Assembly: GCA_964470995.1 (NCBI GenBank)
Contig: CAYYEP010000003.1
Coordinates: 16,682 to 80,681 of the forward strand
From: an uncultured Candidatus Saccharibacteria bacterium
GTDB taxonomy: Bacteria > Patescibacteriota > Minisyncoccia > Minisyncoccales > UBA5738
Direction of reading: 5' to 3'
DNA length: 64,000 bases
Part shown: one piece after another, positions 22,538 through 58,718 of the stretch
Position numbering within the stretch: the first letter of the stretch is position 1
How the letters are laid out: each line of letters starts with the position of its first letter
Notes under the pieces: model-generated
Told to the model about the DNA's origin: nothing
Seen by the model: only the letters and a program-made list of their open reading frames with translations
Databases searched by the model: none
Translations under genes and position numbers: made by a program

Positions 22538-22587
22538 TTTGTGCAAGGTCGCACCTTGCACAAATTGTGCAAGGTGCGACCTTGCAA
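22538..22587. repeat. REP doublet (perfect 50-nt palindrome) at the 5' flank of the RAYT gene
   Basis: TTTGTGCAAGGTCGCACCTTGCACAAATTGTGCAAGGTGCGACCTTGCAA. The two arms are exact reverse complements. Confidence 0.85.
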
Positions 22588-22628
22588 TACTTGCCAAAAC
22601 TATTGTCTTTGCTTATTATTGCGATAAT

Positions 22629-23423
22629 ATGCCAAACCTTACTCGTAATTTTGCTATCGGCGATATTTATCATATCTTTAATCGTGGAGTAGAGAAGCGC
22701 GCCGTTTTTATGGATAACTCCGATTACTACCGCTTCGTTTTTTCGCTGTATGAATGTAACGACGAAACTGCGGTTCGGGTTGGCCAGCGTATAATTGAGC
22801 GCCGCCAAAGAAATACCAACAAAGCAAGTTCTGCAAGGTCGCACCTTGCAAGCTTGCAAGGTGCGACCTTGCAGAATTCAGAAGCGCACAAGAGAGAGCT
22901 GTTGGTTGAAGTCGTGGCTTTTACCCTGATGCCTAACCACTATCATCTAATTCTGCGCCAATTGGTTGACGGCGGCATTTCGCTATTTATGAAAAAATTA
23001 GGCAATGCCTATACCGGATATTTTAATGAGCGGCATGAACGTAAAGGGATGGGAGCTCTTTTTCAGGGACGTTTTAAGGCGATACGTATTGCCGATGACC
23101 GGCAATTTTTGCACCTGGCCGAGTATTTGTTTTCAAACCCTGTCGAAATCCTGGAACCGGACTGGAAGCTGGGCGGCGTCCGGGACCCCGCCGCCGCAAT
23201 TGATTTTTTAAATAATTATAAATGGTCAAGCTATTTGGATAGTATCGGTATGAAAAATTTTCCTTCCGTTACCGATCGGGATTTTTTGTGGAAAGTATTC
23301 GCTGGTTCCACGGACGAGCGGAAGGGGAGGTGTCGCGTCAAAGAATTCACCGAAGCCTGGATCAAGAATAAATCAACACTGTTTTCCGGCATTGCTATTG
23401 CTCAAAAAATATCTTTTGATTAG
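22629..23423 (+). CDS. REP-associated tyrosine transposase (RAYT; IS200/IS605-like Y1 HuH transposase, Transposase_17 family)
   Basis: YHIFNRGVEKRAVF N-terminal strand. HuH motif in LMPNHYHLIL. YTGYFNERHERKG and FQGRFKAIRIADD. Catalytic Tyr motif AEYLFSNPVE about 63 aa after HuH. The ORF-track start at 22539 lies inside the REP palindrome, so the Met at 22629 is preferred. Confidence 0.8.
   Translation: MPNLTRNFAIGDIYHIFNRGVEKRAVFMDNSDYYRFVFSLYECNDETAVRVGQRIIERRQRNTNKASSARSHLASLQGATLQNSEAHKRELLVEVVAFTLMPNHYHLILRQLVDGGISLFMKKLGNAYTGYFNERHERKGMGALFQGRFKAIRIADDRQFLHLAEYLFSNPVEILEPDWKLGGVRDPAAAIDFLNNYKWSSYLDSIGMKNFPSVTDRDFLWKVFAGSTDERKGRCRVKEFTEAWIKNKSTLFSGIAIAQKISFD
22831..22874. repeat. REP doublet inserted in-frame inside the RAYT coding sequence
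   Basis: CTGCAAGGTCGCACCTTGCAAGCTTGCAAGGTGCGACCTTGCAG is translated as SSARSHLASLQGATLQNS without breaking the ORF. Confidence 0.8.
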
Positions 23424-46448: not shown

Positions 46449-46498
46449 TTTGTGCAAGGTCGCACCTTGCAAGCTTGCAAGGTGCGACCTTGCACAAA
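46449..46498. repeat. REP doublet (palindrome) inside the polysaccharide operon
   Basis: TTTGTGCAAGGTCGCACCTTGCAAGCTTGCAAGGTGCGACCTTGCACAAA. Lies between the Wzz-like gene and the ligase-like gene. Confidence 0.85.
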
Positions 46499-49542: not shown

Positions 49543-49560
49543 GTTATTAAAGCCGAAATT

Positions 49561-49607
49561 TTACTTAAGTATATACTTAGTATATACTAAGTATATACTT
49601 AACTTAA
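49561..49607. repeat. three tandem copies of the 12-nt palindrome AAGTATATACTT
   Basis: ttacttAAGTATATACTTagtatatactAAGTATATACTTaacttaa. Candidate operator array. Confidence 0.7.
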
Positions 49608-49778: not shown

Positions 49779-49847
49779 ATGGCAACAAAAAAACCTGTGA
49801 AGAAGGCTGCCAAGAAGAAGCCTGCCGCCAAGAAAAAGAGGAAGTAG
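49779..49847 (+). CDS. tiny lysine/alanine-rich ORF (22 aa, MATKKPVKKAAKKKPAAKKKRK)
   Basis: Immediately follows a cggacc/ggtccg hairpin. Composition resembles a histone H1/Hc1-like tail. Speculative. Confidence 0.25.
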   Translation: MATKKPVKKAAKKKPAAKKKRK

Positions 49848-49911: not shown

Positions 49912-50004
49912 ATGGTGGTAGTACCGAAAAAAAAGAAGGCTCGTCCTTCAAAAGAAAATAAATTGAAAGCCCGCAAGAGCAAGAAAAGAGTTTCCAACCG
50001 GTAA
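49912..50004 (+). CDS. tiny lysine-rich ORF (30 aa, MVVVPKKKKARPSKENKLKARKSKKRVSNR)
   Basis: A second basic micro-ORF 65 nt downstream of the first. Followed by a 13-bp-stem hairpin at 50052-50093. Confidence 0.25.
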   Translation: MVVVPKKKKARPSKENKLKARKSKKRVSNR

Positions 50005-50093: not shown

Positions 50094-50461
50094 TTTTGTT
50101 GTTGCGTTTATATTGCAATCTCAACCGTGCCGCCGGTTTTTTTATTTACCTGCCAGAATACCTCGGAGCTTTGCCGCGGGGATGAATGGCGGCCGCAGCG
50201 TCGCGGAGGCTAAAAACTTACTCTTCCTAACGCGCAGCGTAAGCGGAGCGGAAGGAATACCTCTGAGCTTTGCCGCGGGGTAGTTTATTTGTATTGGCGG
50301 TAGCTCCCATAGGCGTCGCCAATTGGAGCTTGTGTATTTCGGATTTTTTAAACTTTGATATAATAACTGTACTTCGAGGTATTTTAATTGACCGGCCGCG
50401 CCGATTTATCCGATACAATACATATATGTTTCGGAAAGATTTTCGCGGCGGTTCGTCAAAG

Positions 50462-56444: not shown

Positions 56445-57350
56445 ATGATTCCATTCATCAAATACAAGAAGTTCTTCATCGTTTTGACCATGGTGGCAAT
56501 GGCTGTCAGTGTCGCCGCAATCGCTGTTTACAAGCTTAAGCCCGGCATTGAATTTACCGGCGGCAGCGTGATCAACCTTGAGTATAGCAATACCCGTCCG
56601 GATAACGCGGCGGTTTTGGCTAAGATTTCCGAATTAAACCTTGGCGATGTTCCTACGATTTACGCCGAAGGCGAAAAGGGGCTGATAATTCGCACGATTA
56701 CTTTGGAAGAATCCCGGCACGCCGCGATTCTTGAAAAACTGAAGGAAACCGGCGATTTCCAGGAAAAAAGCTTTGAATCCATCGGCCCGGTGGTGGGACA
56801 GGAGTTAACCTCAAAAATGTCGGTTTTAATCACGATATCCCTGCTGGCGATGCTGGTCTATATTGCCGTTGCCTTCAGGAATGTTCCCGGACCGGTTTCG
56901 GCATGGCAGTACGGCGCAGCCTCGTTTTTGATCCTGGCGCACGACGTTTTGGTGCCGCTGGGGATATTCGCGGTTCTGGGCGCCCAATACGGAGTGCAGA
57001 TCACCATCCCGGTTATCACGGCCCTGCTGACCGTGGTCGGCTATGCCATCAACAATGTAATTGTGGTTTACGATCGCATCCGTGAAAATCTGTTGCGCGA
57101 TCATCGGGCACCGTTTAATCAGATTGCCGACCGCGCCGTCAACCAGACCTTAAGCCGCCAGATAAACACTTCGGTAGCAACGCTCATTCCGGTTTTTGCC
57201 ATTTATTTTTGGGCGGGAGCCAGCCTTAAATATTTTGCGCTGGCGCTTATTTTAGGCATCATTACCGGCACTTATTCATCGGTATTTTTGGCCAGTCAGA
57301 TTTTGGCGGTATGGATGGATTTTGACAGGAAAAAAAGCGCGCGGCACTAG
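56445..57350 (+). CDS. secF: protein-export membrane protein SecF
   Basis: N-terminal TM. IEFTGGSVINLEY motif. C-terminal TM bundle. Confidence 0.8.
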   Translation: MIPFIKYKKFFIVLTMVAMAVSVAAIAVYKLKPGIEFTGGSVINLEYSNTRPDNAAVLAKISELNLGDVPTIYAEGEKGLIIRTITLEESRHAAILEKLKETGDFQEKSFESIGPVVGQELTSKMSVLITISLLAMLVYIAVAFRNVPGPVSAWQYGAASFLILAHDVLVPLGIFAVLGAQYGVQITIPVITALLTVVGYAINNVIVVYDRIRENLLRDHRAPFNQIADRAVNQTLSRQINTSVATLIPVFAIYFWAGASLKYFALALILGIITGTYSSVFLASQILAVWMDFDRKKSARH

Positions 57351-57430
57351 CGCGGTTTCGCGCCAAATATGCGGAATCATCCCGGTAGCGCACCAGAGAC
57401 AATAAACCGCCAACCCGTTTTTAGCTTCAA

Positions 57431-57451
57431 AACAGGCCTTTAAGGCCTGTT
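57431..57451 (+). terminator. intrinsic terminator after secF
   Basis: aacaggcct-tta-aggcctgtt (9-bp stem) followed by a T-run. Confidence 0.55.
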
Positions 57452-57479
57452 TGACAAATATTTGAAAATACTATATAAT
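57451..57479 (+). promoter_or_regulatory. consensus sigma-70 promoter (TTGACA-17-TATAAT)
   Basis: ttgaca at 57451-57456. 17-nt spacer aatatttgaaaatacta. tataat at 57474-57479. Exact match to the consensus. Confidence 0.6.
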
Positions 57480-57521
57480 AATTAAAGACCAAAAAAAGGG
57501 TTTATTGAACAAATCTTAATA

Positions 57522-57680
57522 CCCCGCGCGTTTTCCGCCGCGACTGCGGCGGGGCGCCTCCCGTAATCGGGAGGAAGCGGGGGGGATGAAGATTTTTCCC
57601 CGCAGTATGCGGGGGACGCCTGGAGCAAGGCGGAAGGCGGTTCAACCAAGATCACGTAGCGTTTGTCCCGGGGAGATTCA
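57522..57680 (+). ncRNA. candidate structured RNA / structured 5' leader (unidentified)
   Basis: A GC-rich island in an AT-rich spacer, about 45 nt downstream of the consensus promoter. Three consecutive perfect hairpins: ccgccgc-gact-gcggcgg, cctccc-gtaatc-gggagg, ccccgca-gta-tgcgggg. Confidence 0.35.
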
Positions 57681-57731
57681 TTGTAGTTTTCAATAATTTC
57701 ATAATGAAAATAAATTAAAAGTCGTAAAAGC

Positions 57732-58718
57732 ATGATAAACGTTAATTATCAGGAAATTGTCCAGGAGCTCTTAACCCAGCTTCCCGCCAAACAGCGCGAG
57801 GTTATCGAACGCCGTTTTGGTTTAAAAGGAGGGGAGCGCGAAACCTTGGAATCGATTGGCAAGAGCCATAGTATCTGCCGCGAGCGCGTCCGGCAAATTG
57901 AAAAGGTTAGCCTGGCTAAAATGAAGAAGAAAGCTTCGGGTTACAAGGAAGCCGCCAGGTTGTTCGCCAAGTATTTGAAGAATATCGGCGGCGTACGCGA
58001 GGAAAATGCCTTTTTAGAAGAATTGGGCGGCGGCGATTACAAAGCGCATGCGTATTTCTTGCTGGCTCTTTCGGGTGATTTTGTCCGTGCCAGCGAAACT
58101 GAAGACTTCAATAGCCTTTGGGCGCTAAACAAAGAATCTCTTGAGACCGCCAAGAGCTTCATTAAAATTTGCCAGGACTTGCTCGAAGGCAAAAAGCAGC
58201 TTTTAGCGGTGCGCGAACTGGCTTTGGCTGGCGGATTAAAAAAGAACATCGCCGAATCCTACTTGGGAATTTCCCGCCGTGTGCAAAAAAACAAAGAGGG
58301 TTTATATGGATTGCGCGAATGGCCCGAAGTTAGTCCTAAGGGAATCAAGGACAAGATCTATTTATTGTTCAAAAAAAACCGCAAGCCACTTCATTTTACG
58401 GATGTGGCGGGTAAGATTGAGGGAAGCCTGGTGCAAACCGTGCACAACGAACTTATTCGCGATAAGCGTTTTGTATTGATCGGTCGCGGCATTTATGCTT
58501 TGCGCGAGTGGGGATATGTTGAAGGCGACGTTAAGGATGTGATTCTCAATATTTTCGCGACCGAAAACAAGCCCTTGACCAAAGATGAGATTCTTAGCCG
58601 CGTAATGAAGCAGCGCCTGATCAAGGAAAACACCGTGCTCATGAATTTGAGCAACAAAAAATATTTCACGCGCGACAATGAAGGCAAATATTGGCGCGGG
58701 AACGTGCAGGAAGCATAA
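57732..58718 (+). CDS. DNA-binding protein with N-terminal sigma-70 region-4-type HTH
   Basis: LPAKQREVIERRFGLKGGERETLESIGKSHSICRERVRQIEKVSLAKMKK matches sigma region 4. Remainder uncharacterised. Confidence 0.45.
   Translation: MINVNYQEIVQELLTQLPAKQREVIERRFGLKGGERETLESIGKSHSICRERVRQIEKVSLAKMKKKASGYKEAARLFAKYLKNIGGVREENAFLEELGGGDYKAHAYFLLALSGDFVRASETEDFNSLWALNKESLETAKSFIKICQDLLEGKKQLLAVRELALAGGLKKNIAESYLGISRRVQKNKEGLYGLREWPEVSPKGIKDKIYLLFKKNRKPLHFTDVAGKIEGSLVQTVHNELIRDKRFVLIGRGIYALREWGYVEGDVKDVILNIFATENKPLTKDEILSRVMKQRLIKENTVLMNLSNKKYFTRDNEGKYWRGNVQEA

Follow-up and report, generated by a model that had tools for sequence, protein, structure and literature searches.

A GC-rich three-hairpin island behind a perfect consensus promoter in a Candidatus Saccharibacteria genome is probably a recently inserted structured repeat

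What does a perfect sigma-70-type promoter transcribe when a GC-rich island with three adjacent hairpins lies between it and the next protein-coding gene? Such an arrangement is found in the window (the whole stretch of 64,000 nt analysed here) from an uncultured Candidatus Saccharibacteria bacterium, and the initial annotation read it as an abundant small RNA or a structured regulatory leader of the gene downstream. The long open reading frames of the window all lie on the + strand. The 5′ neighbours of the island are secA, a NUDIX gene, secD and secF, and on its 3′ side follow a Sigma70_r4/HARE-HTH gene (hereafter the HTH gene), a gene for an unknown 438-aa protein, a VirD4/TraG-like ATPase gene and pgk (Pfam). 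The downstream product had been taken for a sigma-region-4 protein, and this is upheld by a Sigma70_r4 Pfam match at E 5e-12 and by an N-terminal domain that is nearest to RpoS/RpoD region 4 in NCBIfam and PDB matches. The protein has more than 7000 homologues, those with a named source being from CPR/Patescibacteria, and the gene order from secF to the HTH gene is kept in relatives. Literature searches for structured RNAs of CPR bacteria and for sigma/HARE-HTH proteins gave nothing specific. The features on which the argument depends are as follows.

56445..57350, + strand: secF coding sequence (Pfam SecD_SecF_C, E 1.8e-53)
57430..57452, + strand: hairpin AAACAGGCCTT-T-AAGGCCTGTTT, an 11-bp perfect inverted repeat that abuts the -35 element and is terminator-like for secDF
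57451..57479, + strand: sigma-70-type promoter, TTGACA (57451-56), 17-nt spacer, TATAAT (57474-79), 12/12 matches
57480..57500, + strand: 5′ end of the ancestral leader (AATTAAAGACCAAAAAAAGGG), aligning with the related loci L118, L113, L115 and L081
57501..57673, + strand: GC-rich structured element R, 173 nt, GC 0.61, absent from the collinear L118 leader and delimited also by Logan contig ends
57511..57595, + strand: Y-shaped three-way junction in R, on which MFE and centroid structures agree
57535-41 / 57546-52, + strand: hairpin 1, perfect stem CCGCCGC/GCGGCGG, 7 bp
57557-63 / 57568-74, + strand: hairpin 2, perfect stem CCTCCCG/CGGGAGG, 7 bp
57596..57616, + strand: hairpin 3, UUCCCCGCA GUA UGCGGGGGA, perfect stem CCCCGCA/TGCGGGG (57598-604 / 57608-14), adjoining the junction
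57617..57673, + strand: 3′ domain of R with GGCGGAAGGCGG, more weakly folded (fold of 57486-57800)
57674..57731, + strand: 3′ part of the ancestral AT-rich leader, to the start codon, aligning with L118 and L113 and largely unpaired in the fold
57732..58718, + strand: Sigma70_r4 + HARE-HTH protein gene, 328 aa (Pfam, NCBIfam and PDB matches)

The promoter is present at 57451-57479 as annotated, with all 12 consensus positions matched. The exact string TTGACA-N17-TATAAT occurs once in the 64-kb window where 0.08 occurrences would be expected by chance, and the position of the -10 element predicts a transcription start at ~57486. The exactness of the consensus had been taken to indicate an abundant small RNA, a conclusion that is not borne out by the orthologous loci with which the window was compared (80 from species-representative genomes, 31 from metagenomes and several from Logan/ENA assemblies). 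In 23 related CPR loci a 12/12 promoter occupies the orthologous position, with one further exact match outside these sites in ~0.7 Mb of fetched DNA, and in the clade of at least 62% protein identity the order secF, hairpin, TTGACA-N17-TATAAT, HTH gene is kept. Most clade loci have just 29-51 nt separating the -10 element from the ATG and no GC island, such that the same promoter serves the HTH gene behind leaders of 30-50 nt. Near-clade leaders range from ~30 to 300 nt and are mutually unrelated past the first ~20 nt. Because the perfect consensus precedes the orthologues in 23 loci, the promoter is the HTH gene's own, and it is a conserved trait of this protein-coding gene that gives no sign of an RNA gene.

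The annotation had also placed the promoter over the terminator of secF. The overlap stands, since the 3′ arm of the hairpin at 57430-57452, 80 nt past the secF stop (57350), overlaps the -35 element by 2 nt; as a terminator, however, the hairpin is only weak by E. coli rules, and it has a short T-run and is unlisted by the terminator scan. L113, L115, L081 and L118 carry a hairpin of different sequence at the corresponding place, and the hairpin upstream of the -35 element is thus conserved by covariation.

Among the distant orthologues (L004-L080, 40-55% identity) TTGACA is retained nearly everywhere, and many have 6-10 nt from an extended -10 element (TGnTAnAAT-like) to the ATG, a distance because of which their mRNAs are probably leaderless. 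Sigma region 4 is the domain that reads -35 elements, and a sigma-region-4 protein encoded behind a conserved perfect -35 element raises the idea that the HTH gene may be autoregulated.

The island that follows the promoter is an unusual piece of sequence for this window. All three adjacent perfect hairpins of the initial annotation were confirmed, each of 7 bp and all within 57535-57614, and because the whole window holds only ~15 distinct hairpins of that quality, the occurrence of three within 80 nt is far from chance. The GC island does lie in an AT-rich spacer, but its length is ~150-170 nt and not the ~130 nt first given. It is the most GC-rich intergenic region of the window, with a local GC of 0.65 per 100 nt and 0.77 per 60 nt between flanks of 0.20-0.40. 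Folding is stronger than that of shuffled sequences (z-score -4.3 over 221 nt and -5.3 over the 111-nt core), and the minus strand folds about as strongly against its shuffles; therefore, the fold alone identifies neither a strand nor an RNA function.

The predicted fold gives the junction at 57511-57595 an outer stem formed by AAAUCUU/AAGAUUU plus CCCC.CGC/GCG.GGGG, from which hairpin 1 (57533-57554, loop GACU) and hairpin 2 (57557-57574, loop UAAU) extend as arms. GUUCAA (57640-45) can pair with UUGAAC (57505-10) and would thereby close the whole of R, and the C57510U change in L116/L117, a single observation, leaves a pair of this closing helix as G-U. The interior of R (57531-57643) is documented by the window alone. 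The junction strands are predicted to be only 2-3 nt long and the stems near perfect, a geometry in which a ligand pocket would have little space, and the near-perfect stems of the model look like those of young palindromic repeats.

Does the island belong to a known family of RNAs? The Rfam scan proposed by the initial annotation matched none: Rfam 15 at gathering threshold gave 0 matches among 4227 models over the whole window and 0 matches on 18 related loci, and at E <= 10 the region 57300-57800 gave chance-level matches to unrelated families, with no SRP, 6S, RNase P, riboswitch or ribozyme among them. SRP RNA was rejected because there is no covariance-model match and neither a GNRA tetraloop/helix-8 architecture nor long 5′-3′ pairing. 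The motif that had been likened to SRP RNA, GGGAGGAAGCGG, turns out to form the 3′ arm of a hairpin whose 7-bp stem is perfect and whose loop is UAAU, and bacterial SRP RNA and R are alike only in a short GGAAGC-like motif. An integron attC site and a hammerhead ribozyme were likewise rejected, the former because the R′ and R″ motifs misfit and the latter because the junction strands are too short.

The terminator scan found no terminator-like site on the + strand between 57479 and 57732, and no second promoter-like site adjoins the ATG. Hairpin 3 was rejected as an intrinsic terminator, since its U-run precedes the stem and no U-tract comes after it. Because no terminator-like site separates the promoter from the ATG, R would be co-transcribed with the HTH gene. 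An independent sRNA gene was rejected on two grounds, namely that orthology assigns the promoter to the HTH gene and that nothing terminator-like is found before 57732.

The rationale for treating the island as an insertion is based on comparison with the nearest relative, L118 (Logan run SRR27751817), whose HTH protein is 93% identical. Its leader measures 80 nt with a GC of 0.28, compared with 252 nt in the window. L118 reads ...TATAATAATTCAAGACTAAAAAAACGG|ATTCATTGCAG...ATG and the window reads ...AAAAAAAGGG|[173 nt]|AGATTCATTGTAG...ATG, and with both leader ends given the two become AATTCAAGACTAAAAAAACGG|ATTCATTGCAG...AAAAGTCGTAAAAAGC-ATG and AATTAAAGACCAAAAAAAGGG|[173 nt]|AGATTCATTGTAG...AAAAGTCGTAAAAGC-ATG, respectively. 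L118 thus carries the hairpin, the promoter and both ends of the leader, and 173 nt are missing between collinear flanks, with boundaries of R that are accurate to ~3 nt owing to a GGG microhomology. R is also absent from L113/L114 (91% protein identity), L115 (88%) and L081 (87%). Because of the empty site in L118 and the absence in these further relatives, the GC island is taken to be established as a derived, recent insertion of 173 nt at 57501-57673, ~15 nt past the predicted transcription start.

The initial annotation had tied its reading of a discrete RNA to conservation of the hairpins in relatives. The hairpins are absent at 93, 91, 88 and 87% protein identity, and the small-RNA reading is refuted by this measure of its own. 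Judged from these comparisons, the structure is a strain-level insertion and not a conserved RNA, with the strength of the promoter explained by the protein-coding gene. A conserved cis-regulatory leader or riboswitch was rejected as well, since orthologue leaders of 6-300 nt are unrelated, a covariance model of R finds nothing else and L118 is empty. Expansion of the window's leader from the hairpin of L113 was also rejected, the anchors being suggestive only and not significant.

A second GC-rich insertion relative to L118 and L113, ~60 nt long, lies at 57337-57396, ~100 nt upstream of R. It begins right after AAAAAAAG, as does R, and it swaps the ancestral SecF C-terminus ...KKKRK* for ...KKSARH*. 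Its sequence similarity to R is not above that of shuffles.

A further question is whether R occurs in more than one place in the genome, and here the ends of metagenomic contigs are informative. Logan contigs are assembled at k=31 such that the 31-mers are all distinct per accession, and the contigs are linked in an assembly graph (PMC12424806). By our reading of de Bruijn-graph assembly, contig ends are graph branch points that share a 30-mer. Either secF or the HTH gene is found on seven Logan contigs, none of which is reported with both, and the three with readable ends all stop within the GC island. L116 and L117, which represent the same strain in two runs, end at 57530, allowing for a 1-nt deletion in those strains, and L112, from a third run, starts at 57644. 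These two positions are exactly 30 nt inside each edge of R. Where a unique flank leads into a sequence that is found in several contexts, a contig has to stop 30 nt within that sequence. On this reading the shared unit would be 57501-57673, and its edges coincide with the boundaries of the L118 empty site, which were derived independently. The canonical 15- to 31-mers of the region each occur only once in the window, and the branching partner therefore lies elsewhere. A positive control is provided by the other end of L116 (a 7957-nt contig), which falls in a perfect palindrome at ~49565-49602 where canonical 31-mers repeat.

Other causes of the breaks fit less well. A mix of filled and empty alleles was rejected because it would end contigs at 57500 and not at 57530, the strain variants GG/GGG (57498-500) and C/T (57510) because they predict ends at ~57528 or 57540, and local self-similarity because no canonical 15- to 31-mer is repeated in the window. 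Polymorphisms at 57531 and 57643 could in principle break the contigs, but would need two exact 30-nt coincidences. The breaks in the assembly graph thus suggest that R is probably a sequence in more than one context, i.e. a dispersed mobile repeat. Direct searches for a second copy returned none in the 64-kb window (blastn-short) and none in 80, then 117, related loci (blastn, nhmmer), where only promoter matches were obtained. The covariance model of R run over 685 kb of related DNA finds only R itself, a plasmid collection searched in distant mode gave chance-level matches only (E ~0.8), and viral contigs gave 0 matches in three exact-pattern scans. An antisense 83-aa ORF, used as a proxy for copies of R, has no protein-database homologue and no family match.

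We therefore favor, as the probable explanation, that R is a recently inserted, dispersed, structured mobile repeat that is passively co-transcribed in the 5′ UTR of the HTH gene. R sits between the conserved consensus promoter and the ancestral AT-rich leader of the sigma-region-4/HARE-HTH gene, and it would be read passively as part of a 252-nt 5′ UTR with no independent RNA gene involved. In the predicted fold, 57499-57503 pairs with the 5 nt that begin the predicted transcript, giving a 5′-terminal hairpin, and the start-codon region is unpaired together with the last ~55 nt before the ATG, which are AT-rich. Because the start-codon region is unpaired, translation initiation is probably unblocked, and the 5′-terminal stem-loop and the very stable Y-fold would be expected to alter the stability or processing of the mRNA and not to block its translation. 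For RNases that depend on the 5′ end, a 5′-terminal hairpin tends to stabilise an mRNA, and we infer from the modelled fold that the one predicted here would tend to stabilise that of the HTH gene.

To which kind of element might R belong? It is most likely, by analogy, a MITE/BOX/Correia-like sequence, that is, one copy of a small non-autonomous dispersed repeat. BOX/RUP (pneumococcal), Correia (Neisseria) and ERIC (enterobacterial) elements resemble R in being 100-200 nt long, non-coding and strongly folded, in lying between promoter and gene where they are co-transcribed, and in being present or absent among close strains. The presence/absence polymorphism with a clean empty site that is expected of MITE-type elements is seen between L118 and the window. 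However, Correia and RUP elements have terminal inverted repeats and R is without them, its termini TTTATTGAAC... and ...GTTTGTCCCGGGG being non-complementary; R is also without the modular boxA/B/C organisation, and it is carried by a CPR bacterium whose genome is very small. Of the sole inverted repeat that flanks it, TTATTGAA/TTCAATAA, one arm falls outside R, and the target duplication is ambiguous, amounting to no more than GGG or else to a direct repeat that is imperfect (8/10). Because terminal inverted repeats are absent and the target duplication is so limited, R falls outside the strict MITE definition.

The window also contains a RAYT-like Y1/HUH transposase gene at 22539-23423, with a probable start at ~22630, that matches Pfam Y1_Tnp (E 6.7e-6) and the NCBIfam REP-associated tyrosine transposase at E 4e-10, under that family's cut-off. 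Three REPIN-like inverted doublets of the form GCAAGGTCGCACCTTGC-N6-9-GCAAGGTGCGACCTTGC (6 matches versus 0.16 expected) are located at 22543-22585, 22833-22872 and 46454-46493, one just 5′ of the RAYT-like gene, one in-frame inside it and one between two cell-envelope genes. Mobile palindromes are thus present in this genome, a point in favor of the mobile-repeat reading of R.

REP/REPIN (RAYT) elements are like R in that they are clusters of GC-rich palindromes in transcribed intergenic regions, and a RAYT-like gene is present in the window. R differs from them, however, since it is no inverted doublet of one unit and its hairpins are unrelated to the GCAAGGTCGCACCTTGC doublets; the doublet motif of the RAYT gene, GCAAGGT(CGC/GCG)ACCTTGC, by which membership of the REP/REPIN group would be recognised, has no match in 57300-57800. 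Miniature elements of the IS200/IS605 type (PATEs) share with R the lack of terminal inverted repeats and of a clear target duplication, internal hairpins and a Y1 transposase in the genome, whereas the hairpins of R are central and not subterminal, and no cognate IS, target motif or cleavage site was identified. This resemblance may serve as a lead only.

A different account is that R is a single-copy, lineage-specific cis-regulatory leader that, whatever the origin of the insert, has been co-opted to tune expression of the sigma-region-4 protein by stabilising the mRNA, sensing temperature or a ligand, or serving as a platform for protein binding. The initial annotation's claim of a structured leader for the HTH gene stands as to position, since R is downstream of the promoter on the same strand with no terminator between, and falls as to conservation. 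R lies in the 5′ UTR in sense orientation, and the + strand folds ~7-10 kcal/mol better than the minus strand by way of G-U pairs. Its start is predicted to pair with the first 5 transcript nucleotides as a 5′-terminal hairpin, the variant C57510U retains the predicted pair as G-U, and related loci have structured but unrelated modules at the same place. Known leaders offer parallels, in that those of sigma factors (rpoS) also place a long folded 5′ UTR before a sigma-related regulator, and 5′ stabiliser stem-loops of the ompA type also have a hairpin at the very 5′ end; these leaders, however, show conservation and work through the ribosome-binding site or the access of RNases, whereas R lacks conservation and keeps the start region free. 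A leader that is absent from the closest relatives would be dispensable for the regulation of the gene. Moreover, the ribosome-binding/start-codon region is not sequestered, near-perfect stems with junction strands of 2-3 nt offer little room to a ligand, and the assembly breaks suggest that R has more than one context in the genome, all of which makes a regulatory leader of this kind unlikely. The very strong promoter and the compact, stable structure would also suit an independent or processed sRNA of ~190 nt, freed by termination or by an RNase, with the HTH gene reached by read-through. Such an RNA is nevertheless highly improbable, since in every relative this promoter is that of the HTH gene, a terminator-like site, an Rfam family and conservation are all lacking, and the repeat unit leaves out the promoter and hence cannot represent a duplicated sRNA gene.

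Could R instead be a divergent housekeeping RNA (SRP, 6S or a miniature RNase P), as would be typical of reduced CPR RNAs? This idea draws on short likenesses, in that GGGAGGAAGCGG may resemble SRP or RNase P motifs and GGAGCAAGGC is presumably shared with the RNase P RNA of E. coli. The hairpins, with their perfect stems of 7 bp and their UAAU and GACU loops, are not helix-8-like, none of the 4227 Rfam models gives more than a chance-level match even at E <= 10, and relatives with 93% and 91% identity would not lack an essential RNA at the orthologous site, where moreover an exact empty site is seen; the housekeeping reading is effectively refuted, and we give it next to no weight. There is more to be said for single-copy filler, or a horizontally acquired fragment, that entered by illegitimate recombination and has neither function nor mobility. 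No second copy of R was found directly, and the unrelated GC-rich insertion of 60 nt lies 100 nt upstream, also after AAAAAAAG. The breaks, however, are deterministic, with several runs placing them exactly k-1 inside each of the two edges, a random gene fragment would not be expected to contain perfect hairpins at such extreme density, and the antisense 83-aa ORF is without homologue or family match. In a variant of this reading, the region is a 35-aa upstream ORF (57587-57694) whose ATG is 12 nt past GGGAGG, but this Shine-Dalgarno-like sequence is buried in hairpin 2. Filler DNA, with or without the ORF, is quite improbable.

If the inference of several copies is true, a small dispersed structured repeat exists in a CPR genome beside a RAYT/REPIN-like system. 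The usual description of CPR genomes is that they are streamlined and contain little mobile DNA. R most likely joins an already known kind of element, the small structured, probably mobile repeats found in 5′ UTRs. For the locus itself, a false lead is removed, since the region is neither a new abundant sRNA nor a divergent SRP RNA, and the perfect consensus promoter is here the mark of a sigma-region-4/HARE-HTH gene that is conserved in CPR bacteria and that they probably express at a very high level. The window and L118 form a natural with/without pair for the effect of a folded 5′ UTR insert on expression.

One aspect could hide something more unusual, and that is the recurrence of different modules at one position. 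Among close relatives, this spot of the leader is occupied by no fewer than five structured modules that are unrelated to one another: R and those of L115/L081, L081/L086, L085/L087 and L105/L107. The loci L115:303-413 and L081:2702-2810, from the 88%- and 87%-identical orthologues, share a structured module of ~110 nt whose copies are 84% identical, with at least one compensatory stem change and no Rfam match. An imperfect palindrome of ~165 nt with terminal arms of 22-24 bp is found in the 5′ UTR of the HTH gene at L081:2816-2979 and L086:2749-2912; the copies are 74% identical over 103 nt, the lineages are non-sister and the palindrome is absent from L115. It looks MITE- or ERIC-like. R might accordingly be read as one member of an undescribed family of structured CPR mobile elements that home to the first 12-16 transcribed nucleotides, past an A-tract, at a hot spot of RNA-module turnover, although we rate this as decidedly unlikely. 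Under such a hot-spot reading, the gene targeted would be one of very high expression, the modules could move by means of the RAYT-like Y1 transposase or via an RNA intermediate, and selection could favor them for changing the dosage of the sigma-region-4 regulator.

Two further repeat-bearing stretches were observed in the window. The stretch 49560-49605 contains ACTTAAGTATATACTTAGTATATACTAAGTATATACTTAAC, 38 nt that are AT-rich and form a perfect palindrome or tandem repeat, after which come two tiny lysine-rich ORFs (49780-49847 and 49913-50004; e.g. MATKKPVKKAAKKKPAAKKKRK). A 24-nt direct repeat, AATACCTC(G/T)GAGCTTTGCCGCGGGG, occurs twice (~50157-50182 and 50256-50281), ~100 nt apart, just 5′ of an S30AE/hibernation-factor gene whose listed start it overlaps.
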